This document shows positions 7,195-64,000 of a stretch of DNA of 64,000 nt, piece after piece (positions within the stretch are counted from its first letter, which is position 1; each line of letters begins with the position of its first letter). Position numbers and translations under genes: made by a program. Below the pieces are notes generated by a model. That model worked only from the letters and a program-made list of their open reading frames with translations. It did no database searches and was not told the DNA's origin. This stretch comes from Parcubacteria group bacterium (GTDB taxonomy: Bacteria > Patescibacteriota > Minisyncoccia > Phycocordibacterales > Phycocordibacteraceae), in contig JAQBRG010000003.1 in the NCBI GenBank assembly GCA_028286615.1, forward strand, positions 83,330-147,329, given 5' to 3'.

Positions 7195-7232
7195 TCATTA
7201 GGGACAGATTTAATCTGTCCCTAATCCTTTTT
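7195..7232. terminator. Bidirectional rho-independent terminator
   Basis: TAGGGACAGAT-TTAA-TCTGTCCCTA with an A-run before and a T-run after. Confidence 0.6.
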
Positions 7233-9896
7233 ATTCTTCTTCGCCTTCTTAAGCATCTTCAATAGGTACTCTCCTGTATGAGATCCTGGGGTATCTGCAA
7301 CTTCTTCAGGAGTACCTTTAGCTACAATCTTTCCTCCTCCGTTTCCTCCTTCAGGACCGAAGTCTATGAGATAGTCTGAGGACTTAACCACATCCAAGTT
7401 GTGCTCGATAACAACAACCGTGTTGCCACGACGAACAAGCTCCTGAAGTATTTCAATAAGCTTTCGAACGTCTTCGTAGTGAAGTCCAACCGTAGGCTCA
7501 TCGAGAAGATAAATGGTCTTCATCGTTGTGGGACGGTAAAGCTCCGAAGCAATCTTCACGCGCTGTGCCTCTCCTCCTGAAAGGGTTGTGGCGCTCTGTC
7601 CAAGCGTTAGGTATTCAAGACCAGTAGCATTAAGACTCTGAAGGCGTTCCTGTACTGAAGGAATGTCCTCAAAGAACTTCTCAGCTTCTTCAACTGTCAT
7701 CTGGAGTACTTCGTGGATGTTCTTGCCACGGAAAGTAACCTCAAGCGTCTCTTTCATGAACCTGGTTCCGTTACATACGTCACAGGTTACATACACAGTT
7801 GGAAGGAAATGCATCTCAACAGCAATAACGCCATTTCCCTGACACGCTTCGCAGCGGCCTCCAGCAACATTGAATGAAAAGCGTCCGGGCTTCCAGCCAC
7901 GTGCACGCGCTTCGCTAGCTGACGCAAAGAGATCGCGAATGTGTGTAAATGCTCCTGTGTAGGTAGCAGGGTTAGAACGAGGAGTTCGTCCAATAGCAGA
8001 CTGGTCTATGAGTACTACGCGTCCCACGTACTCCGTACCCGTCATGCTTGCTACATGCTCAAGCTTTGTTTCGCGCTTTGCAAAGCGGGCTGCAATATTC
8101 TTGTGGAGGATGTCGTAGAGGAAGGTAGATTTTCCTGAACCAGACACGCCTGTTATGCAGACAAGCTTTCCTAGAGGAATATCAACATTCTGGTTCTTAA
8201 GGTTGTGCAGTGTTGCTCCACGCACCTTAATACTTCCCTTTTCTGCGGTACGACGTTCTTCAGGTATCTCAATCTCAGTTTCTCCACGAAGATATGAAAG
8301 TGTTAAGGAACCAGTATCGTTCTTAGGAGCTGTGAGAAGTTCTTCGAGCCATCCTTCTGCAACAATCTTTCCTCCATGAGTTCCTGCACCGGGACCAATG
8401 TCGAGAATGTAGTCTGCCGCGTAGATAGTGTCTTCGTCATGCTCAACAACAAGAATGGTGTTGCCCAGCTCTTTAAGCGTTAGGAGCGTTTTGATAAGAC
8501 GATCGTTATCTCGTTGGTGGAGTCCGATGGTTGGCTCATCAAGTACATAGAGCGCTCCTACGAGTCCCGTACCAAGCTGGGACGCAAGACGAATACGCTG
8601 AGCCTCTCCTCCTGAGAGTGTTGCTGCAGAGCGATTGAGCGTTAGATAATCCAGACCCACGTTAAGCATGAAATCGAGACGCGAGGTAATCTCGCGAATG
8701 ATAGGACGTGCAATTTCCATGCGCATCTCAGAGAGCTCGAGCGTGTCCATGAACTCCTTCGCGTTTCGAATGGAGAAGTTAGTGAAGTCCACCACGTTCA
8801 TACCAAGTGGGTGGTCTTTAGGATTCTTTTTTTGAGGAATGTACACGCGGAGTGCTTCAGGACGAAGGCGCTTTCCTTCGCAAACTGGACATGGCTCGTC
8901 TGAGAACAAAGACTTGGTACCAAGTCCGTTACAGTGCGGGCAAGCTCCATACGGACTATTGAAAGAGAAGAGGCGGGGCTCAACCTCAGGGAAAGACATG
9001 CCATCGTCCGGACATATAAACTTCGAAGAGAGGGTCTCTGATGTTCCGTCTGCGTGCTTCAACTTCACCAGTCCATCGCTTTCCTTAAGAGCTAGTTCTA
9101 GAGCCTCTGAGAGGCGCTCCCGGGCTGTATCCGGGTTCTTTGTGAACTCTGAGACGTAGATACTATCTACGATTGCATCGATGTCATGGCGCTTGTTTCG
9201 GTCGAGGGTAACCTTCTCGCGAAGGGCGTGCATGTTGCCGTCTATAAGCACTCGCTCGTATCCCTTTCCGAGAAGATCGTAGAGAAGTTGGTAGTACTCC
9301 CCTTTGCGTCCAACCACTACTGGCGCGTAGATAGTTACAGCACTCTTGTCTACAGCAACACCCATAACCTGTTCCCCATTAGCTCCTGAGCGTGCGGAGA
9401 TCTTGTCGAACACAATACGAATCATCTCTTCCTTAGAGAGTTTAGAAATGGGCACATCATGCTCGGTACAGTATGGCTGTCCTGCGCGCGCGTAGAGAAC
9501 ACGGAGATAGTCATAGATCTCTGTAACGGTAGCAACCGTTGAGCGCGGGTTATTCGAACGACTCTTCTGGTCTATAGAAATAGCGGGAGAGAGACCGGTG
9601 ATCTCATCAACATCAGGCTTTTGCATCTGGTTAAGGAACTGGCGAGCATACGCTGAGAGAGACTCAACGTAGCGACGCTGCCCTTCGGCAAAGATAGTAT
9701 CGAAAGCGAACGAAGACTTACCAGAGCCTGAAAGACCTGTAACTACGGTCATAGCACCCCGAGGAAACTCAGTAGAAATGTTCTTAAGGTTATGTGTTCG
9801 TGCACCCTTTACACGTATCCATTCCCCGCCCGTATGCTGCTCATGGTGCACTTCTGCTTTTTTTGGTTTGGCCATTATGGAAAGGTCCCAGTCCAT
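7221..9896 (-). CDS. uvrA: Excinuclease ABC subunit A
   Basis: [10 protein letters not shown]...[38 protein letters not shown], two ABC modules and zinc-finger cysteines; 891 aa. Confidence 0.95.
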
Positions 9897-13684: not shown

Positions 13685-16600
13685 CTACCGCCTTTTTCGT
13701 GGTGTGCTTTTCTTCTTCGGTTCCCCGCCTTCAAGGGAGTAGATTTCGTCTCGTATAAGCGCTGCTGTTTCAAAATCCAGTGCCTCGACCGCTTCTTCCA
13801 TCTGTTTGCGCTTGTCTTTAATAAAGGCAACCGGGTCTTCCTTGTACAACTTCTCGTCTAGAGAGAGAAGCGAGTGGACGGTCTTCTGATGTTCGCTACG
13901 CATGGTTTCAGCAATGTCTCGAATTTCCTTCTTAATTGTTACGGGTGTTATGCCGTGCTTGTCGTTGTACGCCTTTTGTATAGTACGGCGGCGGTTAGTC
14001 TCTCCAATTGCGCGCTCCATTGAACCGGTCATAACATCGGCATAGAGAATAACCTTGCCTAGGATATTTCGGGCAGCGCGTCCGATAGTTTGAATGAGCG
14101 AGGTTTCAGAACGAAGGAACCCTTCCTTGTCAGCATCAAGAATTCCCACGAGTTCAACCTCAGGAAGATCGAGTCCTTCGCGAAGAAGGTTCACACCCAC
14201 AAGTACGTCAAAGTCCCCCTTACGGAACGCGGTGAGAATCTCAATACGTTCTATCGTCTTAATGTCGCTATGCAGGTATTCAGCTTTTATCTTCCTCTCG
14301 CGAAGGAATTCGGAAAGATCCTCTGCCATCTGTTTGGTTAGAGTTGTGGCAAGGGCACGGCCTCCACGCTTAATTACAATCTCAGCTTCGTGGATGAAGT
14401 CTGCCACCTGTCCCTTGTAGTCTCCGCTTTCAACAATTGGCTTAACCTCAAGCTCTGGGTCTATAAGTCCGGTAGGACGAATGATCTGCTCAACAACCTG
14501 TCCGTTGGGAGCAACGCTATGTTCGCGCTCGTAATTGCCTGGAGTAGCGGTGGTGTAGATAGTCTGGCCAATGCGTTTCTCAAACTCATCGAACTTGAGT
14601 GGACGGTTGTCGCGAGCTGATGGCAAACGGAATCCGTGCTCAACAAGCACGTCTTTGCGCGAGCGGTCTCCCGCATACATACCACCAACCTGAGACACCG
14701 TTACGTGCGACTCGTCGATAATAGTAAGGAAGTCAGGGGTGCCGTCCTTCTTGTGCGGGAAGTATGAAAGCAGGGTGTGTGGAGGGTCTCCAGGAGCTCG
14801 TCCATCAAAGTGTCGCGAGTAGTTCTCAATGCCGCTCGTATAGCCAATCTCACGAATAAGCGCGAGATCATGCAGGGTACGGCGTTTGATACGTTCTGCC
14901 TCAAGAAGCTTCTCTTCTCGCTTGAAGTGCGCAAGCTGCTCATCTAGCTCCCTTTTGATATCTTCGATTGCGCGGTTGCGATCGTCTTCGCTCGTAACGA
15001 AGTGTTTGGCTGGGAAAATAAACAGGGAATCTGGTTCTGCGGTCTTGGCGCGTGATACCGGATCCAAGCATTCAATGCGCCCTACCACATCCCCATCAAA
15101 GGTTATGCGGAATATGGAACGTTCGTTCGTTGGCATGAGTTCAACTGCGTTTCCAACTGCACGAAGCTTGCCGGGTTCAAGGTCTGCGTTCGTACGTTCG
15201 AAATAGATACCGACGAGTTTGCGAATAAGAGCTGCACGATTCTCTTCTGTACCCTTAATAACCTTTACGTGTCGCTTCTCGTATTCCTGGGGTGAACCAA
15301 GACCATAGATTGCAGAGACGGAGGCTACGATAATAACGTCGCTGCGTGTGAGGAGAGATTGTGTAGCTGCGTGGCGAAGACGGTCAATCTCAGCATTGAT
15401 CTGTGCCTCCTTTTCTATATAGGTATCAGAGTGAGCGATATATGCTTCCGGCTGGTAGTAGTCATAGTAGGAAACGAAGTAGTGCACTTCGTTCTCGGGA
15501 AAGAATTCACGATACTCTTGGGCTAGCTGAGCTGCCAAAGTCTTGTTATGCGCCATCACCAAAGTTGGCTTTCCGAAGTTGGCTATTACGTTAGCTGCAG
15601 TATATGTATTATGGACAAACATACCACCGCGTCCAGCAAGGAAAGTTTCATTGCCGTCAACGGCGAAGTCGTAGACCTTGCCAGTACCATGTATCTTTTC
15701 AATACTTTGCACAGGTGTCCAGAATAGATTCAGAAGTACTTCCCAGTTATCAACAATTTCTTTAACAGCTGAAATTGACTCATGTGTCTTAAAGAAAGCT
15801 ACAAGCTTCTTTGTCACTGAGTAGGAAGGCTTACGTATACCCGTTTCTAACATAGACATATACGAACGCTCGATACCGCAAGCTGCGGCTACGTCTCTTT
15901 GATGTAGAGACAGTAATGTCCTTAGCTCTTTAATCTGTAAGCCTTGTATAGGTATGAGATCTACGTTTGTATTAGCAGACGGAGGAATTATTTTTTCAAG
16001 TGCTTTTTGTTTACGCGGTAAGAAGAATCCAATTTCCTCCTGAAATCGTTCAAGGCTGTCTTTACCGGAAATACTAATCTTCCATACCTCGTTTCTAAAG
16101 GTTTTTCCGGGAACTTTAACCATTTTTCTCTTTAGGCGTGCAACGATACCAAACCGAAGAAGCGCGTATAACAATTCTGACGCAAGCTTTTTACTTACCG
16201 TAGAAGCAGATACGATATTTTTATCTACCCCGCCATCTGCAGAGAAATAGGCGCTTAGTAGCTGGGCAAGCTGTGCATTCGACAATTCATTCCAGAATGG
16301 TGGAAGCTGCTTGGTTTGGGAATGGCTACCGCACCATTCTGCTAGAACGTCATGCCATAACAGACTATTTATTTGATAGTCGTATGTGCCTGGTCGGTGA
16401 CTGAAGGTCATGCCACGCAGAGTTACCTCTTTGCGCACGTCCTCAACGATTTCCTCATCACCTGACGAAATCGTCAAATATTTTCCAGTAGCGTGTCCTT
16501 CACCTATATAGAAGCCGAGGAGTCGCAAAAATGAAGGAGTTATTACTTGGATGGGTGAGGTTGCAAGTTTTAAAGAACGGCTTCCAAGCATCATTAGATT

Positions 16601-17314
16601 AGGAGCGACTAACTGAACTGATGCTAATGATGCTCGTTCGCCCAATGCAACGCGGTGGCGTTTGTAGTAAGGGAGTGTTGAGAGAAATTCATTACCCCAT
16701 CCACTGATACCGACAGGGGCGGCATAAAAAGAGTGCGCTGATCTTAACAAGACAGGAGTTACATTTACCTCTTTTAATTCTTGTGTAGGTCCATCTATGA
16801 ATCTTGGTACTGGAAGAAAGTCTCCAGCCCTAACATCCTCTGTTTTCAAAAGTATTAGCGTGCCGTCTCGCAAGACGTAAAAGTTATGGTCGCCCGTCGC
16901 AGTCACTTTCCTCCCACAGCTGCTTTCTATATCCCAGAGTTCTTCTGGCGAATGATGTCTGGATACTTGCGTAATTTGCTTCCAGGAGGATTTTCCAGTC
17001 GTAGGGTTTACGCTATACGTTTCTATATCTAAGAACTCAGTCTCGAGTAGCTCAGTATCTCCAAGCAATAAAGCCTCGTCTTGGTAGCGTATAAACAAAT
17101 CGTCAACATAGTCTCCGATAGCCAAGCATTCTGAACGGCTTTTATCACGTACGAGTACTGCTGTATCAGGAGTGACGCTCTTTCCAGAACCCGTAACTCC
17201 GAGCAAGGTCTGGTGCCGCATGCCCTTTTTAAGACCTTCGGTTAGTTTGGCTATGGCAGCCGGCTGGTCGCCGGCAGCGGGAAATGGAATATGGAGCTTA
17301 AATTGACCGTTCAT
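13685..17314 (-). CDS. uvrB: Excinuclease ABC subunit B interrupted by a 524-aa intein. The mature extein is about 685 aa.
   Basis: N-extein ...QTLLGVTGSGK; C-extein TYTAANVIANFGKPTLVMAHNKTLAAQLAQEYREFFPENEVHYFVSYYDYYQPEAY..., and UvrB helicase motifs to the C-terminus. Confidence 0.9.
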   Translation of the reverse strand: MNGQFKLHIPFPAAGDQPAAIAKLTEGLKKGMRHQTLLGVTGSGKSVTPDTAVLVRDKSRSECLAIGDYVDDLFIRYQDEALLLGDTELLETEFLDIETYSVNPTTGKSSWKQITQVSRHHSPEELWDIESSCGRKVTATGDHNFYVLRDGTLILLKTEDVRAGDFLPVPRFIDGPTQELKEVNVTPVLLRSAHSFYAAPVGISGWGNEFLSTLPYYKRHRVALGERASLASVQLVAPNLMMLGSRSLKLATSPIQVITPSFLRLLGFYIGEGHATGKYLTISSGDEEIVEDVRKEVTLRGMTFSHRPGTYDYQINSLLWHDVLAEWCGSHSQTKQLPPFWNELSNAQLAQLLSAYFSADGGVDKNIVSASTVSKKLASELLYALLRFGIVARLKRKMVKVPGKTFRNEVWKISISGKDSLERFQEEIGFFLPRKQKALEKIIPPSANTNVDLIPIQGLQIKELRTLLSLHQRDVAAACGIERSYMSMLETGIRKPSYSVTKKLVAFFKTHESISAVKEIVDNWEVLLNLFWTPVQSIEKIHGTGKVYDFAVDGNETFLAGRGGMFVHNTYTAANVIANFGKPTLVMAHNKTLAAQLAQEYREFFPENEVHYFVSYYDYYQPEAYIAHSDTYIEKEAQINAEIDRLRHAATQSLLTRSDVIIVASVSAIYGLGSPQEYEKRHVKVIKGTEENRAALIRKLVGIYFERTNADLEPGKLRAVGNAVELMPTNERSIFRITFDGDVVGRIECLDPVSRAKTAEPDSLFIFPAKHFVTSEDDRNRAIEDIKRELDEQLAHFKREEKLLEAERIKRRTLHDLALIREIGYTSGIENYSRHFDGRAPGDPPHTLLSYFPHKKDGTPDFLTIIDESHVTVSQVGGMYAGDRSRKDVLVEHGFRLPSARDNRPLKFDEFEKRIGQTIYTTATPGNYEREHSVAPNGQVVEQIIRPTGLIDPELEVKPIVESGDYKGQVADFIHEAEIVIKRGGRALATTLTKQMAEDLSEFLRERKIKAEYLHSDIKTIERIEILTAFRKGDFDVLVGVNLLREGLDLPEVELVGILDADKEGFLRSETSLIQTIGRAARNILGKVILYADVMTGSMERAIGETNRRRTIQKAYNDKHGITPVTIKKEIRDIAETMRSEHQKTVHSLLSLDEKLYKEDPVAFIKDKRKQMEEAVEALDFETAALIRDEIYSLEGGEPKKKSTPRKRR
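15608..17179 (-). mobile_element. Intein (Hint domain, LAGLIDADG homing endonuclease and internal HTH) inserted in the UvrB Walker-A/P-loop (GSGK|T)
   Basis: Intein begins SVTPDTAVLV (block A, Ser1); TATGDHNFYV (block B, TxxH); LLGFYIGEGH and LLSAYFSADGGVD (two LAGLIDADG motifs); HTH-like RDVAAACGIERSYMSMLETGIRKPS; ends ...VYDFAVDGNETFLAGRGGMFVHN followed by extein Thr+1. Confidence 0.8.
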
Positions 17315-17371: not shown

Positions 17372-17719
17372 ATGGTTAGTATTGAGCAGATAGATTTGGA
17401 CTTCTGTCCCAACCTCAACATATTACGAACTTTAATCCTCGCAACAGAAGCGGCGCAAAAACACCTGCATGGCAGCGAGCCATTCCTGATTGCAGAAAAT
17501 GGCAGTATTTCAGATATTGAGTCCTTTCAGATTACTTTGCTATTAAATCCAATCGAGCCGGGATTTGTGAGTTTCCGGTCTCAGCTTGAGGCAGTTTATT
17601 TAGCTCACGAGAAATGTACCTTGAGTGTCAGTGATATTGAGACACTTAACTCCCGTGCAGAATCCGCAGTACTTACGACAATGGATATGATTAGCAACCC
17701 TCTGAATCATACTCAATAA
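17372..17719 (+). CDS. Hypothetical protein (115 aa)
   Basis: ORF between divergent uvrB and tgt, followed by a terminator. Confidence 0.4.
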   Translation: MVSIEQIDLDFCPNLNILRTLILATEAAQKHLHGSEPFLIAENGSISDIESFQITLLLNPIEPGFVSFRSQLEAVYLAHEKCTLSVSDIETLNSRAESAVLTTMDMISNPLNHTQ

Positions 17720-18988: not shown

Positions 18989-19121
18989 ACCCTAGCGGGA
19001 AGCCTGTATAAGAGCAAGGAATAAAGCCATGTTTGTTACTTGACAAAGTGTCAAGGTGTGCCTATAATAGTTCTCAGAGGGCACATGTTCTCGACAATTT
19101 TTTCCTAGAGGAGAGATCCAC

Positions 19122-19760
19122 GTGAGTGTTAAATCTTTTGGGGCTCTGGCCCTCGGTATCGTCGCTCTTGCGCTTGGCGCTTGCTCGACGACCCAGTACG
19201 CCGGCTACAGCAGGGATCCCCTGGCTGTGACGGCGATCTTCCAGAACGAAGACTGCGACCAAAGCGGCTGCGAATTCGGCTCCAACAAGAACCCGAAACG
19301 TCTGATCCCTGCTGAGGCCGCCGCCGGCATCACCCACTATGGGATGACGTGCGCCCAGGACACCGCCAAGCAAGTTGCCGGCCCAGTCCAAGCGACCGTC
19401 GACGGTATCGTTCCGAACGCGGCCGCAAGCGGCTTCGGCCTGCGCACCGGCATTCCCTACGTGAAGGGAAATCCTGCAAAATACGGCGCCTATGGGGCCG
19501 TGGTCGGAGCGTTCGGTGGCGCCAACTCTGGCGCCACCACCGGGGCGTTCTCCTCGGCCACCACGCGAGGCAAATGCGTCGACGACAAGTTCGCCGACGC
19601 CGGAGCCAAGGCCTTCCCTGGCACGCACACGGCAACCGTGACGGCCGGCAAGAAGATCGGCGCCAAGCTCGAACTCGACGAGACGCCGGTCCTGGACGCC
19701 TACTACAAGGAAAAAAACAGCACGCCCGATTCGGCCAAGAAGCCGCAAGAAGGCAGCTAA
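19122..19760 (+). CDS. Lipoprotein (signal peptide plus lipobox LGAC), about 63% GC, likely horizontally acquired; GTG start
   Basis: GGAGAG Shine-Dalgarno site then GTG; MSVKSFGALALGIVALALGAC; Gly/Ala-rich; GC far above the local background; strong terminator follows. Confidence 0.6.
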   Translation: MSVKSFGALALGIVALALGACSTTQYAGYSRDPLAVTAIFQNEDCDQSGCEFGSNKNPKRLIPAEAAAGITHYGMTCAQDTAKQVAGPVQATVDGIVPNAAASGFGLRTGIPYVKGNPAKYGAYGAVVGAFGGANSGATTGAFSSATTRGKCVDDKFADAGAKAFPGTHTATVTAGKKIGAKLELDETPVLDAYYKEKNSTPDSAKKPQEGS

Positions 19761-19782
19761 ACACCTACGGGTGCAAAGCGAA

Positions 19783-19823
19783 GACCCGGGTGTCATCACT
19801 GACACTCCGGGCCTTCTTTTTAT
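19783..19823 (+). terminator. Rho-independent terminator
   Basis: CCCGGGTGTCA-TCAC-TGACACTCCGGG followed by CCTTCTTTTTAT. Confidence 0.6.
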
Positions 19824-20399: not shown

Positions 20400-22622
20400 C
20401 TACTTGACTTGCTTAGTAAACAAATCTACTTTTGGTCTTCCGCTAAAGGTACTAATCTCCCTCAGCTTGGTATCAGGATTGTATACCTGCCCCTCTGTAA
20501 CGTAATACGAGACTCCATTTTCCTCCATCGTATTCTCAGATAGCGTATATACACCTATACCTGGGTTATCGAAGGAGTAGGTTTGTGCAAACAGGCTTCG
20601 CTCCTTATAAGTACCTCCATGCACAAACAAGTTGCCCTTGGTATCGCTATATACATGCGGCTCGTTAGGATTTACTTCAATTCCCTGCGCGTTACGAACT
20701 GTCTCTGAGCTTGCTTCAGGCTGCGCTTTTTCTTCAGTTACCGTGGCAGAGACAGCAGCTGGAGCAGCCTCTGGCTTGGCTTCTGTTACTTTTGCTTTCT
20801 GCTCAAGAGGAGGCTTATTTTTTATAAAGGCTTCATATGCTTTGGATTTGTACCCGACATCTCTTACCATCTTCTCTTGAGTCTGGTTGTACTGTTCACG
20901 TTCAAAACCTGGAGGTATTTCCTTAGTTGAGTGCCATATGTTGAAGGAGTTTGCAGGGTCTGGTGTTACATCCATCTTCGCTGACATCTTGTATTTCTTT
21001 GGTGCAGTTTTAACTTCTTTCTTTGCGGCTTCCTTGTTAACAACAACCTTTGGAGGAGCTTCTGCACTACTCTTTGCTACAGGAGCTTTAATGCCCGCAC
21101 TCGCAGCTGATTTAGCTGCTGCGGGCTTTGTTGTTTGCTTCTGTATTTCTTTCGTGTGGTCGTTTCCGGGGTGTGACAAACCAAAGAAAGCAGCCAAGCC
21201 AGCTATGCCTGCTGCGCCCAGACCAATGAGGCCAGCTTTTTTCTTGGAGTTCTTTTTCGCTTCTGAGGGCGGTTTCGTTCCTTTAGCATTCTGCTTTTCT
21301 AAGAACTTCTCATACTGCTTTAGCGACATGCCGTGAGACGCTGCGAGGAGGTGAGGATTAGTATCTCCACTTACTGGAGCTGGTGTACGGCCGGCTTTGG
21401 CGTCTCTTTTTGCCATAGCTTTTTCATATGCCTTAACATTTTTATATCCCATAGCAGCTGCCATAAGGTATGGATTGTGTGGCATTGGCTTCTCCTCTAG
21501 AACTGGCTCAGGTTCGACACCTGCAGCTGGTGTTTCTGTCTCAGCGAGTGCTTCTGGGGTACTTGCTGGAGCAGGTGCGGCGTCAATCTTTGTAAAGCCA
21601 CCCTCATTCACAGATCTGTAATCTACAGGCGAAGAGTTCAAAGGACTTACGCCTGGGAACTGTTGCGGGTAGTTGGGATCTTGCTGCACTGGAGAAGAAA
21701 GGCTGGCCTGTTGAAGCAATTCTGCAAGCTTTTTCTTGGCTTCATCTCTGCTATCAAACATCTTTGGCTGCGGGAGTTGCTCTCCAAGTGCTTTGTCCAT
21801 GGCCTGTTGGTACGCTTCGAACTGTCCAGGCAAGAATTCAGGGACTGTAAGAGATTCAGCTACAGGCTCAGCGTCTACAGCGAGTACTTCAGGTTCCGCT
21901 GGCTCAACTTCAACAGGCTGGTTCTCTGTGACAACTTCAGCAGGTGCTTCTGCCTTTTTTGCTTCTGCAACTTTTTGTGCTGCTTCTAAAACCTCAGGGA
22001 TTATCTTCTGATCAAACTCGTCAGAAAGAGCATCGTATTCGTCATTTATTTTTTCTATGATTCGTTTACTTGGCTCTTTTTCCATTTGAGTTACAAGGGA
22101 TGTGATCCTTTTATAGGCATCGTATGCTTTTCCCCACTCTACTGGCACATCATGTACTTGAATTCCCATCGCACGCACGTCCTCGCCTAGCCACATAAAT
22201 CTATCCTTGGCTATTTTACGAGCTCTATCATATTCGTTTTCTTCCGCTGCTTCAGCGTTCTTAGAATCTTGTGGTTGCTCAGCAGATTCTATCTTTCCTT
22301 CAGCTGCTGCAGATATTACCTGCACATCCTGAGATGCTTTATCTTCTTCGACTTTAGCAGCAGGTCCCCCCTCTACCTTATCAACAGCAAAGTCTTCATA
22401 CGCAGATTCGTATTTTTTCTGTAGCTCTGCTTTCTTTTTAGAATCTGTAGAGCCTTCATAGGCGTTTAGAGCATCAATTGCAGCATAGTATTTAGCTGCC
22501 GGCACACCTGCTTTCGTACGCTTTACATTCAAGCTAGCAAGAATGCCTCTCTCTTTATCAACATCCAGTGTCTTTTTTATTCCTGAATCAATCGGTGGGT
22601 TTGGAGGGCTATTAAGTGACAT
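20400..22622 (-). CDS. Large low-complexity (A/E/K/P-rich) membrane-anchored protein of 740 aa, with one central TM helix and a globular C-terminal domain
   Basis: Compositional bias, TM LIGLGAAGIAGLAAFFGL. Sits immediately downstream of the VirB4-like ATPase gene. Confidence 0.55.
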   Translation of the reverse strand: MSLNSPPNPPIDSGIKKTLDVDKERGILASLNVKRTKAGVPAAKYYAAIDALNAYEGSTDSKKKAELQKKYESAYEDFAVDKVEGGPAAKVEEDKASQDVQVISAAAEGKIESAEQPQDSKNAEAAEENEYDRARKIAKDRFMWLGEDVRAMGIQVHDVPVEWGKAYDAYKRITSLVTQMEKEPSKRIIEKINDEYDALSDEFDQKIIPEVLEAAQKVAEAKKAEAPAEVVTENQPVEVEPAEPEVLAVDAEPVAESLTVPEFLPGQFEAYQQAMDKALGEQLPQPKMFDSRDEAKKKLAELLQQASLSSPVQQDPNYPQQFPGVSPLNSSPVDYRSVNEGGFTKIDAAPAPASTPEALAETETPAAGVEPEPVLEEKPMPHNPYLMAAAMGYKNVKAYEKAMAKRDAKAGRTPAPVSGDTNPHLLAASHGMSLKQYEKFLEKQNAKGTKPPSEAKKNSKKKAGLIGLGAAGIAGLAAFFGLSHPGNDHTKEIQKQTTKPAAAKSAASAGIKAPVAKSSAEAPPKVVVNKEAAKKEVKTAPKKYKMSAKMDVTPDPANSFNIWHSTKEIPPGFEREQYNQTQEKMVRDVGYKSKAYEAFIKNKPPLEQKAKVTEAKPEAAPAAVSATVTEEKAQPEASSETVRNAQGIEVNPNEPHVYSDTKGNLFVHGGTYKERSLFAQTYSFDNPGIGVYTLSENTMEENGVSYYVTEGQVYNPDTKLREISTFSGRPKVDLFTKQVK

Positions 22623-22632
22623 AGATAAATAG

Positions 22633-25386
22633 TTAAGAAAGGTATCGAGCTCTAATGGTTGCTTCTATAGTGGAACGGTCTCGCCCGTAGGTCAAGTAGG
22701 AAAGCTGCCTAAGATCGTCTACCTGCGCCAAGTTCCCTTCGCTAAGTGGGAGTGTTTGCATATTGAACGGCTTCTGCGGTATGCCATGAGCAAGAAGACG
22801 GATATATGCGTTTCTGTTTTCAAGGTTTGTAAAGTCCGAAGAGGTAAATGCAGGTGCAAAAAGTTTCTCAAAGAATTCTCCGTCTTCCTGTCCAACGCGG
22901 AACGCTGCCATTGATCCAACGTTTCCGAACACCGCATCACGTATCTTCTGGTCAACCTGCGCCAGGAACTGGTGCGCAAGGGTTAGAGAGAGTTTGTACT
23001 TGCGAGCTTCTGAAAGAATACCTGGGATAGAGTCCGTAGTTATGTTCTGGAACTCGTCTATGTAGAGGTAGAACGGTGGGAAGTCTCCACGTGGATTGTC
23101 TGCACGAGATAGTGCAGCCATAAACAACTTTCCAACAAGAATAAGACCGAGCAGGTTGGCGTTTCGTTCTCCCAGTCTTCCCTTTGAAAGATTAACGAGA
23201 AGAATCTTCTTGTTGTCTATAACTTCACGGAACTTAAAGGAAGATTCCTGCTGGCCAATAATAGGACGCATGAAGTCGTTTGCCGTGAACTCGTCGAACT
23301 TGTTCGTGATATACGGCACAATGTTCTGAAGCGATGCCTCGCCTTCAGCTTTTGTAGCAATTTCCTGCCAGAACTGGTTAACGATTGGGTTGTTGCTCTT
23401 AGAAAGTTTGAGATTTCTAAACTCTGCGTTTGAAAGTACGCGTCCAATATCCATGAGTGTAGACCCTGATGCCGGATCTTCCATAACCAGCTGTGTTGCG
23501 TTACGGAAGTACTGTTCGAAGGCAGGTCCCATACTCTCGGGCACATCTCCATACAACTGCCTGAATATCATAAGCATCTCGTTCACAATGAAAGATTTCT
23601 GCTCGGGCTTAGACGGATCGTACTCAAGCATGTTGAGACCGAACGGACGGTCTAGGTATGCTGGATCAAAGTAGATAACGTCTTCGTATCGCTCCGGAGG
23701 AACGCTCGCTAGCACGTCGAGAATATCGTTGCCGTGCGGATCTATGAAGCAGACACCGTTTCCGGCTTTAATATCCTGTTCAATCATAGTCTTAAGGAAT
23801 CCAGTCTTTCCGGCTCCCGTCTGTCCAATAACATAGAGATGGCGAAGACGGTCCTCAGGTGCGAGGAATACGTCTGTAAGTGTTCCGCGGAAGTTGTTCG
23901 TACCCAGCTTCATACCTTCCTTCGGCATTTCCATAGGAGCGGCAGCTGCTGCCGTACGCGATTGTTTCAAGTGTGGCGAAGACTCAATACCCTTTGGAGG
24001 GAAGTGGTACATCGTGGTGAGTTCGCGAAGAGAAAGCGGAAGGAGAGACCCTTGTGAGAAGAGACGGAAAGAGAAGTTGCGGAAGAAGCGCTTGATATCT
24101 CCTCGCTTAGGTTCGACGAAAGCGAGTCTGTTGCCTGTTGTATTTTCAAACTGGTTAAAGGAAGATGCCAGTTCTTCAATTATTTGATGTGCACGCGAAG
24201 GATCTTGTGAGGACACGGCAAGACGAATATTTGCGGCAACAATCGGAGCAGCAATCTTCTTCTCAAGCATTTCAATACCCTTCTCATCTATTGGGCCTTT
24301 ATTCTCAGGCTTCTTAGAGTTGTTAGCGAAGATATTAAACGCTTCACGAGCCAAGTCTCCTACGAATGTTTCAGGGAGCGAGAAAGCTTCAGAACGAGTC
24401 TTTCCTTCGCGAAGTGCATGCAGCACTTTTCTATAATGTTCTACGTAATGGTTGCCAACAGGCTTGAAGATTATCTGAAGCGCAGCTCCCTCGCCCTCCG
24501 GAGCAATCTTCGCAAATGCATTTAAAAGAGAGTTGAGAGGATCGTAGTCAAAGTCTTGGTAGTCCTTAAGCGGCAACATGCCTACATCCTTAAACTTTCC
24601 AACAACTCCCACAGACGTACCTCCGTCCATGAAGATGTTGTAGTCGTTTGGTTGAGCGGTTATGTGTGCTCCCGGGAATATAGCGAGCAATTGCTTTTCA
24701 AAAAGGTCTTTGCGGGAGTTAGGGACCGCTGCGTAGAACATAAGGTGTGGATGGTCTACCGGTACCGCAAGCTCAAGCGTGAAGTATGGCGGCTCGCTTT
24801 TATGTGCTTCTCCAACTGAAAGCATGCCTGAGTAGAACTGTTCCATTGCGGACACCAGTTCCTTCAATGTCTTTTCTCTTCCTTCCTGAGTACTTGCAAC
24901 TTCAGGTAGCGCAATCTCGTAGAGGGTCATGTGCAGCGCCTTCCATTCAGGCTGTCCCTCCTTAATGCCTTGAATTGGCATTCCCTTTAAAACGTACTGC
25001 ACGAGGAAGCGATGGAAGTCGTCTTCAAGGTGCGGATTAGCTAGCTTTTCAAGTACCGCAAACGCATTTGCTACACCCTTCGTCTCCATAATGTTGCGAA
25101 GTTCTTCTATAGTTTCGTCGTCTGCCTTTGGATCAAGGTTTAGGGCAAGCTCATGCGCGGCTTCTGCAGGCATGCGGTATCCAGGAGCAAAATGTTCTTC
25201 TGCCGCATTCTCGCGATGATGCGTTATGCGTTCGTGCGCAACTTCAGCGCGCGGCATAACCGTGTTGAGCGCAGCAAGCTCTGCTTCTTTCGCAGCTACT
25301 TGCTCACGCAGATATGCAATCTCATCTTCAGGCGATGCGATCGGCCGTGTGGGTCCCTCCATTATGTAGAAGTATACGTTATTCAA
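22633..25386 (-). CDS. VirB4/TrbE-like (DUF87 / AAA_10-type) type IV secretion ATPase of 917 aa
   Basis: C-terminal-half P-loop HLYVIGQTGAGKTGFL...CFIDPHGND; Walker B FYLYIDEFQNI; KYKLSLTLAHQFLAQV resembles the VirB4/VirD4 family. A VirD4-like coupling protein cannot be excluded. Confidence 0.55.
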   Translation of the reverse strand: MNNVYFYIMEGPTRPIASPEDEIAYLREQVAAKEAELAALNTVMPRAEVAHERITHHRENAAEEHFAPGYRMPAEAAHELALNLDPKADDETIEELRNIMETKGVANAFAVLEKLANPHLEDDFHRFLVQYVLKGMPIQGIKEGQPEWKALHMTLYEIALPEVASTQEGREKTLKELVSAMEQFYSGMLSVGEAHKSEPPYFTLELAVPVDHPHLMFYAAVPNSRKDLFEKQLLAIFPGAHITAQPNDYNIFMDGGTSVGVVGKFKDVGMLPLKDYQDFDYDPLNSLLNAFAKIAPEGEGAALQIIFKPVGNHYVEHYRKVLHALREGKTRSEAFSLPETFVGDLAREAFNIFANNSKKPENKGPIDEKGIEMLEKKIAAPIVAANIRLAVSSQDPSRAHQIIEELASSFNQFENTTGNRLAFVEPKRGDIKRFFRNFSFRLFSQGSLLPLSLRELTTMYHFPPKGIESSPHLKQSRTAAAAAPMEMPKEGMKLGTNNFRGTLTDVFLAPEDRLRHLYVIGQTGAGKTGFLKTMIEQDIKAGNGVCFIDPHGNDILDVLASVPPERYEDVIYFDPAYLDRPFGLNMLEYDPSKPEQKSFIVNEMLMIFRQLYGDVPESMGPAFEQYFRNATQLVMEDPASGSTLMDIGRVLSNAEFRNLKLSKSNNPIVNQFWQEIATKAEGEASLQNIVPYITNKFDEFTANDFMRPIIGQQESSFKFREVIDNKKILLVNLSKGRLGERNANLLGLILVGKLFMAALSRADNPRGDFPPFYLYIDEFQNITTDSIPGILSEARKYKLSLTLAHQFLAQVDQKIRDAVFGNVGSMAAFRVGQEDGEFFEKLFAPAFTSSDFTNLENRNAYIRLLAHGIPQKPFNMQTLPLSEGNLAQVDDLRQLSYLTYGRDRSTIEATIRARYLS

Positions 25387-46341: not shown

Positions 46342-46388
46342 AACACCTGCGTCAGAAAACCCAATATTTAATACCTTTCCAAGCGAGC

Positions 46389-46457
46389 TGGGAGACTAGG
46401 GATCGAACCTAGATTCACGGCTTCAAAGGCCGCTGTCCTACCATTAGACGATCTCCC
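46389..46457 (-). tRNA. tRNA-Gln (anticodon TTG), compact 69-nt form
   Basis: Reverse strand GGGAGAT...GCGGC-CTTTGAA-GCCGT...CTAGG-TTCGATC-CCTAG-TCTCCC-A. Clear T-arm and anticodon arm; short D-arm. Confidence 0.7.
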
Positions 46458-46496
46458 AATATCTGTATCCTGCCTGAGAATTAGGGCGCGAGCAAG

Positions 46497-63871: not shown

Positions 63872-63942
63872 GGGCCTGTAGTTAAATGGTATAACTTCGG
63901 ATTCCAAACCCGACGTCCTAGGTTCGATTCCTAGTGGGCCCG
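63872..63942 (+). tRNA. tRNA-Trp (anticodon CCA)
   Basis: GGGCCTG-TA-GTTA-AATGGTA-TAAC...loop TTCCAAA...CTAGG-TTCGATT-CCTAG-TGGGCCC-G. Confidence 0.8.
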
Positions 63943-64000
63943 CATCTACATAAAGCAGAAGGCGCTGGAATTTCCAACGCCTTAAGCACTACGCCACAGA

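Follow-up and report, generated by a model that had tools for sequence, protein, structure and literature searches.

Why should the gene of UvrB, the ATPase at the centre of damage verification in bacterial nucleotide-excision repair, be nearly twice as long as usual? The question is raised by a 64,000-nucleotide stretch from a Parcubacteria group bacterium (contig JAQBRG010000003.1, positions 83,330 to 147,329; hereafter the window), in which uvrB is a single uninterrupted open reading frame (ORF) of 1209 amino acids (aa) on the minus strand. Our analysis suggests that the excess is a canonical class-1 intein, inserted between Lys45 and Thr46 of UvrB and carrying a double-motif LAGLIDADG endonuclease, probably still active, together with an XRE-type helix-turn-helix (HTH) domain. 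We give this reading a probability of about 85%. The original prediction, made from the letters of this stretch, had placed an insert of 524 aa at 15608-17179, leaving an extein of 685 aa, and these coordinates match ours exactly.

The 3630-nt frame is open throughout. The insert corresponds to UvrB residues 46-569 and splits the Walker A motif as GSGK/T (slashes mark splice junctions). It starts with SVTPDTAVLV and finishes with GGMFVHN; both junctions are codon-exact and in frame, and its deletion yields a 685-aa UvrB with GSGKT restored. The whole ORF scores 921 bits with the NCBIfam UvrB equivalog PRK05298 (NF003673, cut-off 743) and 908 bits with TIGR00631 (cut-off 750). The match to PRK05298 comes in two stretches, the best of which restarts at model position 42, immediately past the insert. 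Pfam recognizes the domains UvrB_inter, Helicase_C, UvrB and UVR. The insert is absent from orthologues, and the exteins rejoin as an intact UvrB. There is neither a frameshift nor a fusion, given in-frame junctions and exteins that form one contiguous UvrB. The intein thus survives the two objections that the original prediction had raised against itself, namely a missing C-terminal splicing Asn and a frameshifted fusion with a separate gene. Its proposal of a P-loop insertion with a Ser1/Thr+1 pair is likewise confirmed by the junctions.

The same arrangement recurs elsewhere. Initial protein searches returned about eight close relatives of 38-49% identity, all of them UvrB fragments of the form GSGK/S...HN/T. 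Metagenome contigs were then scanned with the family alignment, using the two LAGLIDADG motifs as search patterns, so that mini-inteins and copies whose endonuclease has degenerated would escape; this gave 215 relatives, and 80 loci were retained for inspection. At 56 of the 80 (L004-L059), uvrB is interrupted at the same site by a homologous intein and reads in a single frame across the junctions, with TG[ST]GK/S at the N side and HN/T at the C side. An alignment was built of 41 non-redundant full-length inteins, 515-560 aa in length and 32-60% identical to the window copy. Ten residues are invariant in it: S1, T95, H98, E227, K290, R438, E445, D504, H523 and N524. Position 315 is Asp in 40 copies and Glu in the remaining one. 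Pfam finds Intein_splicing and LAGLIDADG_3 in all 41 copies and HTH_3 in 39 (E <= 0.001). Mean pairwise identity is 0.48 in the endonuclease, 0.40 in the HINT N-half, 0.32 in the HTH domain and 0.21 in the linker (129-210); a better conserved endonuclease than HINT N-half fits selection on cleavage.

Source names attached to family members include Candidatus Staskawiczbacteria, unclassified Patescibacteria, a Bacteroidota metagenome-assembled genome and Candidatus Limnocylindrales, some contigs being GC-rich, and the junctions of these members were verified in sequence. On these sequences the occurrence is clearly sporadic across lineages and, judging by source names, crosses phyla. An exhaustive HMMER search, free of motif bias, returned 4360 proteins with E <= 0.001, of which 111 had E <= 1e-30, with no obvious mini-intein among the best UvrB-type matches. 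A single-sequence pattern search of species-representative genomes gave one distant archaeal intein only, its patterns being too specific. Two members have disturbed reading frames. In the second-closest intein relative (P0001, 47% identity; positions 1594-5307 of L003), uvrB is called as three ORFs (751, 127 and 346 aa), owing either to frameshift errors or to a gene decaying downstream of the intein; in P0147, a GC-rich member, the C-terminal part is frameshifted.

How complete is the splicing machinery? An intein profile search, which the original prediction had recommended, was positive with all three models: Pfam Intein_splicing (PF14890) matches the insert with 59.5 bits (cut-off 35.8), and with the insert alone the NCBIfam models intein_Nterm (TIGR01445, 35.0 bits against 24.5) and intein_Cterm (TIGR01443, 24.5 bits against 15.6) span intein residues 2-102 and 501-524. 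The motifs quoted in the original prediction are all present, from SVTPDTAVLV (1-10) and TATGDHNFYV (93-102) through LLGFYIGEGH, LLSAYFSADGG and the HTH motif to the terminal HN followed by Thr. The class-1 nucleophile Ser1 is found in 41/41 family members, the block B Thr-x-x-His (T95-G-D-H98) does not vary, and the C-terminal end reads H523-N524/Thr+1, with HN/T at the loci where both junctions are available. The original prediction had regarded the Ser1/Thr+1 pair as less common; within this family it is the rule. AlphaFold2, run on a nine-sequence alignment, gave a model of the full intein with pLDDT 86 and pTM 0.85. Against the PDB, Foldseek ranked PI-TkoII (2cw7, E 1e-27), the TliVMA intein (7qss, E 4e-27, TM 0.80 on target) and PI-PfuI, followed by PI-SceI, mini-inteins and I-DmoI. 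With the profiles above cut-off, and matches to mini-inteins at about 2-3 A root mean square deviation (rmsd), the HINT fold is recognized both in sequence and in the model. The intein of the window contains four cysteines only (18, 88, 283 and 434), none being a splicing nucleophile. All 41 UvrB inteins have Cys88 (window 16916-16918), which belongs to a CGR motif shortly before block B; in their relatives from HerA-like, TraG-like and DNA polymerase hosts this position is Ser (SGR).

The endonuclease and the HTH domain are also recognizable, as the original prediction had claimed. Pfam LAGLIDADG_3 (PF14528) matches in two stretches with 73.5 bits (cut-off 22.5). In the model the alpha-beta-beta-alpha-beta-beta-alpha unit is present twice within the endonuclease domain, and each of the two LAGLIDADG helices ends with an acidic residue, Glu227 in 41/41 copies and Asp or Glu315 in 41/41. 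Foldseek matches of the endonuclease are I-DmoI and I-Tsp061I (TM 0.62 on target). A conserved NTNVDxIP linker (403-410) then precedes the HTH domain, which scores 32.3 bits with HTH_3 (cut-off 23) and whose HTH motif DVAAACGIERSYMSMLETGIRKPS covers intein residues 428-451. This domain, modelled alone with pLDDT 87, forms a bundle of five helices (413-422, 427-434, 438-446, 453-464 and 470-482). Its fold matches C.BclI, SinR, C.AhdI, C.Kpn2I, DdrO, HipB and the lambda repressor, with TM 0.6-0.75 and an rmsd near 1 A across 50-56 columns; the Foldseek E-values, 2e-3 and above, are weak, which is common with a domain so small. The order of domains is that termed HINT-HEN-ACD by Beyer and Iwai 2022 (PMC8966425): an extra domain, the accessory domain (ACD), lies between the homing endonuclease (HEN) and the C-terminal HINT segment, as in the structural matches 7qss and 2cw7. 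An extra HTH had been singled out as an uncommon feature. It is no peculiarity of this copy, as 39 of the 41 members carry one and both TliVMA and PI-TkoII have a domain of this kind at the same position.

Table 1. Coordinates of the interrupted uvrB gene and of the parts of its intein (window positions; residue numbers of the intein count from Ser1)
Feature	Window position	Strand	Basis
uvrB precursor ORF (1209 aa + stop; N-extein, intein, C-extein)	13685..17314	-	ORF list, NCBIfam, Pfam
N-extein, residues 1-45, ending with Walker A residues GVTGSGK	17180..17314	-	alignment with TLLGVTGSGK in the intein-less L002 orthologue
Intein, 524 aa, Ser1 to Asn524	15608..17179	-	Pfam/NCBIfam profiles, AlphaFold2 model, Foldseek
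HINT N-terminal half, intein 1-128; block A SVTPDTAVLV, block B TATGDHNF (Thr95, His98)	16796..17179	-	TIGR01445; beta-rich in model
Linker/small helical region, intein 129-210, poorly conserved	16550..16795	-	pLDDT 46-67; mean pairwise identity 0.21, lowest segment
LAGLIDADG homing-endonuclease domain, intein 211-398	15986..16549	-	Pfam LAGLIDADG_3, model, Foldseek
LAGLIDADG motif 1, LLGFYIGEGH (intein 220-229; Glu227)	16493..16522	-	
LAGLIDADG motif 2, LLSAYFSADGG (intein 307-317; Asp315)	16229..16261	-	
XRE-type HTH accessory domain, intein 413-482, five helices	15734..15943	-	Pfam HTH_3, isolated-domain model
HINT C-terminal strands, intein 483-524	15608..15733	-	TIGR01443; aligns with PI-PkoII C-terminus; D504, H523, N524 invariant
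C-extein, residues 570-1209 + stop; first residue Thr+1 (TYTAANV...) completing GSGKT	13685..15607	-	

What would such an element do? The splicing steps that we propose are those of established class-1 intein chemistry. The HINT domain would fold from its two halves, and Ser1 would undergo an N-O acyl shift to an ester, aided by Thr95 and His98 of block B. Thr+1 would attack this ester by transesterification; cyclisation of Asn524, aided by His523 and by Asp504 of block F, would then release the intein, and an O-N shift would re-form an ordinary peptide bond, so that the 685-aa UvrB again reads GSGKT. In the precursor, 524 residues separate Lys45 from Thr46, so that splicing should be needed for ATP binding and, with it, for nucleotide-excision repair. 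In E. coli, UvrB mutants of Lys45 are deficient in repair. The released 524-aa protein would act as a site-specific endonuclease on the uninterrupted P-loop coding sequence of uvrB, around GTTACGGGTTCTGGAAAG/ACATATACTGC, the stretch of intein-less uvrB proposed for cleavage being CTCGGAGTTACGGGTTCTGGAAAGACATATACTGCAGCTAACGTAATA. Glu227 and Asp315, the two LAGLIDADG acids, would bind the catalytic metals, and the HTH domain would supply DNA contacts flanking the core site. This last role agrees with the position of the HTH domain, which is that of the accessory domains of TliVMA and PI-TkoII that modulate cleavage (PMC8966425). The element would spread by homing, a form of gene conversion, when the break is repaired from a copy that bears the intein.

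The original prediction had called for a comparison with insert-free UvrB: the spliced 685-aa extein has at least 120 intein-less UvrB matches of 682-717 aa, with 80-87% identity and 98-100% coverage. These matches are named Candidatus Paceibacterota, Parcubacteria or Patescibacteria, and among the at least 120 listed none has an intein. Because these best relatives of the extein are all intein-less, empty alleles are, on the sequences compared, the rule in the clade of the host. The best empty relative (P0022, locus L002) shares its gene order with the window: histidine kinase (HisKA/HATPase_c), uvrB, a small divergent ORF, tgt, an unrelated or unannotated ORF and an FKBP isomerase. Its uninterrupted P-loop reads TLLGVTGSGKTYTIANV, with 44 of 60 nt identical to the window around the insertion point. 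To the check on homing-site polymorphism that the original prediction had proposed, the at least 120 intein-less relatives give an answer between clades; among strains, no empty allele was found in the metagenome collection.

Several observations weigh against a mobile, active intein. The conserved residues are the basis on which splicing and cleavage are inferred, and the invariance of the LAGLIDADG acids (E227/D315) is partly due to ascertainment, since the motifs served as scan patterns. The exact 24-nt reconstituted empty site GGGTTCTGGAAAGACATATACTGC has no match in the metagenome collection, so that no empty allele of the same strain is available; the closest one, in L002, is only 74.8% identical to the window uvrB at the DNA level. 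No intein relative exceeds 60% identity, the closest being that of L004 with 60%, and no pair was found in which the inteins are more alike than the exteins; neither result points directly to a recent transfer. Members share 49% to 82% extein identity with the window, and over all pairs, which are not independent, intein and extein identities are weakly correlated (Spearman rho 0.28), so that horizontal transfer is only suggested by this comparison. A foreign origin was also sought in base composition. GC content at third codon positions (GC3) is 0.38 in the intein vs 0.51 in the extein (two-proportion z of about 4.3), and this line was rejected as decisive evidence, the intein being no outlier among the genes of the window (GC3 z = -1.4, GC z = -1.8). 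The missing near-identical empty allele, the 60% ceiling and the lack of inteins more similar than their exteins are what would be seen in a fixed vertical relic that can still splice and whose endonuclease is dead and immobile, the HEN and HTH domains persisting through splicing-coupled folding of an important repair protein. We nevertheless disfavour this alternative and consider it unlikely. Conservation extends to E227, K290 and D315, and no large segment is better conserved than the HEN; no mini-intein derivative appears among the protein matches that were not selected by motif; and the at least 120 closest UvrB relatives, all intein-less, argue against simple vertical fixation.

Could the host have put the element to use? 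Conditional splicing might gate nucleotide-excision repair, or the excised intein might serve as an HTH DNA-binding regulator. The retention of the HTH domain in 39/41 copies, with R438 and E445 invariant, would suit such a function, as would the resemblance of the isolated domain to DdrO, SinR and the controller (C) proteins of restriction-modification systems; conditional splicing of P-loop inteins has been reported for mycobacterial DnaB (PMC6195587). Yet the Ser1/Thr+1 pair offers no redox-sensitive thiol, the window contains no operator-like or secondary homing-site copy within 3 mismatches, and the HTH-like domains of solved inteins are explained by recognition of the DNA substrate (PMC8966425), so we regard host-level regulation as very improbable. 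A broader form of the idea, in which the intein is not purely selfish and its excised HTH-bearing form or its conditional splicing acts as a regulator tied to DNA damage in bacteria of reduced genome, seems to us quite unlikely. In a milder version, the shared HEN-HTH module might enable jumps between the Walker A sites of UvrB, HerA-like, TraG/VirB4-like and MCM proteins, in Bacteria and Archaea. It is hardly credible, finally, that the insert does not function as an intein, whether it arose through chimeric assembly or gene fusion or is decaying and leaves uvrB inactive. The split uvrB of P0001 (L003) and the frameshifted one of P0147 would speak for it, but in the window the frame is open, the junctions are codon-exact and all splicing residues are intact, and the recurrence of the same architecture in 56 independent contigs contradicts an artefact or a fusion.

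How does this presumed homing intein compare with known ones? According to Novikova et al. 2016 (PMC4760082), the P-loop inteins DnaB-b, MCM-a, RFC-a and RadA lie in Walker A motifs before the Thr or Ser that follows the Lys, a documented hot spot, and the UvrB intein shares this position. The TliVMA intein of Thermococcus litoralis (V-ATPase subunit A, VMA-b site; 7qss; PMC8966425) likewise interrupts a P-loop and shows the same order of HINT-N, LAGLIDADG HEN, HTH-like accessory domain and HINT-C. It differs by its archaeal ATPase host, by its shorter length (432 residues in the crystal) and by its sequence (about 17% identity). Moreover, its ACD was likened to the 434 repressor by structure only (PMC8966425), whereas the HTH of the UvrB intein is recognizable in sequence as HTH_3. 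The best PDB sequence match is PI-TkoII/PI-PkoII, intein 2 of the Thermococcus kodakarensis DNA polymerase (2cw7, E 5.8e-20). It also has an HTH-like accessory domain, and its block F/G pattern DNENFLVG...AHN is nearly identical to DGNETFLAG...VHN of the UvrB intein; on the other hand, its host is a family B DNA polymerase and its site not a P-loop, it contains an additional domain IV, and identity is 18%. In TliVMA and PI-TkoII, DNA cleavage behaviour changed when the HTH-like accessory domain was deleted or swapped (PMC8966425).

Outside UvrB, the nearest relatives of the intein interrupt other Walker A motifs, namely those of a HerA/DUF87-like ATPase (P0150, GTGKGK/S...FVHN/S), a TraG/VirB4-like ATPase (P0165, GTSGGGK/S...FVHN/S) and an archaeal MCM (P0156, GDPGAAK/C...VVHN/T), the last with HTH_3 after the endonuclease domain. 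The window itself encodes, at 22633-25386 (-), a 917-aa coupling-protein-like ORF that combines a HerA/DUF87 P-loop, free of intein, with a TraG-D_C domain; it adjoins a 740-aa ORF at 20400-22622 (-) with no Pfam match.

UvrB inteins are already deposited. OGZ63752.1 (Candidatus Staskawiczbacteria, 1206 aa), named 'UvrABC system protein B' in UniRef, and MBU0668452.1 (Patescibacteria) have the same site and architecture, with 38-47% intein identity. Among deposited members (P0002, P0290, P0144, P0158 and P0152) the names include 'helix-turn-helix domain-containing protein', 'hypothetical protein' or 'LAGLIDADG family homing endonuclease', and one further name is 'intein/homing endonuclease/DNA-binding XRE family transcriptional regulator', an annotation gap for the UvrB allele. 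Searches of the literature combining inteins with UvrB, excinuclease ABC or Patescibacteria found no description of a UvrB intein. In PMC4760082, the table of the top 15 bacterial intein hosts includes UvrD and RecG and not UvrB. The novelty that we would claim is modest: this kind of intein is known, and UvrB appears not to have been described as a host in the literature searched. No feature is new in kind, since the P-loop hot spot, the HINT-HEN-ACD arrangement and the Ser1 and Thr+1 nucleophiles are all known already.

With this reading, UvrB would join the proteins that host a homing intein in their P-loop. Uncultivated bacteria from several phyla carry dozens of copies of this allele, behind database names such as 'HTH protein', 'hypothetical' or 'LAGLIDADG endonuclease'. 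For genome annotation, a uvrB of nearly double length would be explained with neither a fusion nor a pseudogene. The 41-sequence alignment offers material to test whether accessory DNA-binding domains retarget inteins, and it is suited to this question because the endonuclease is uniformly conserved, the XRE-type domain is recognizable in sequence and close relatives occupy other Walker A sites. Inteins of the Ser1/Thr+1 type, with a catalysis predicted to be thiol-independent, could also be a source for protein engineering.

Some minor features of the window complete the picture. When the intein was compared by phmmer with all window ORFs of at least 60 aa, uvrB alone matched. An Rfam scan of the window gave four tRNAs only (Ala-TGC 2441-2514, Gln-TTG 46387-46458, Leu-CAA 58501-58583 and Trp-CCA 63872-63943), with no further family above its gathering score and nothing being tied to the intein. 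A GC-rich island with strong AT skew lies at 19074-19805 (GC 0.61-0.65 vs 0.48 for the window); its 212-aa ORF (19122..19760, +) is Gly/Ala-rich, has a lipoprotein-like N-terminus (LALGAC) and no Pfam match, and shows no homology with the ORF that fills the tgt-FKBP slot of L002. Between uvrB and tgt, the small divergent ORF at 17372-17719 (+), of 115 aa and with no Pfam match, has a weak counterpart at the same position of L002 (23% identity over 60 aa, E 0.001). On the same strand as uvrB and about 4 kb from it, uvrA occupies 7221-9896 (-), and at the syntenic locus L002 uvrA also follows uvrB a few genes on.

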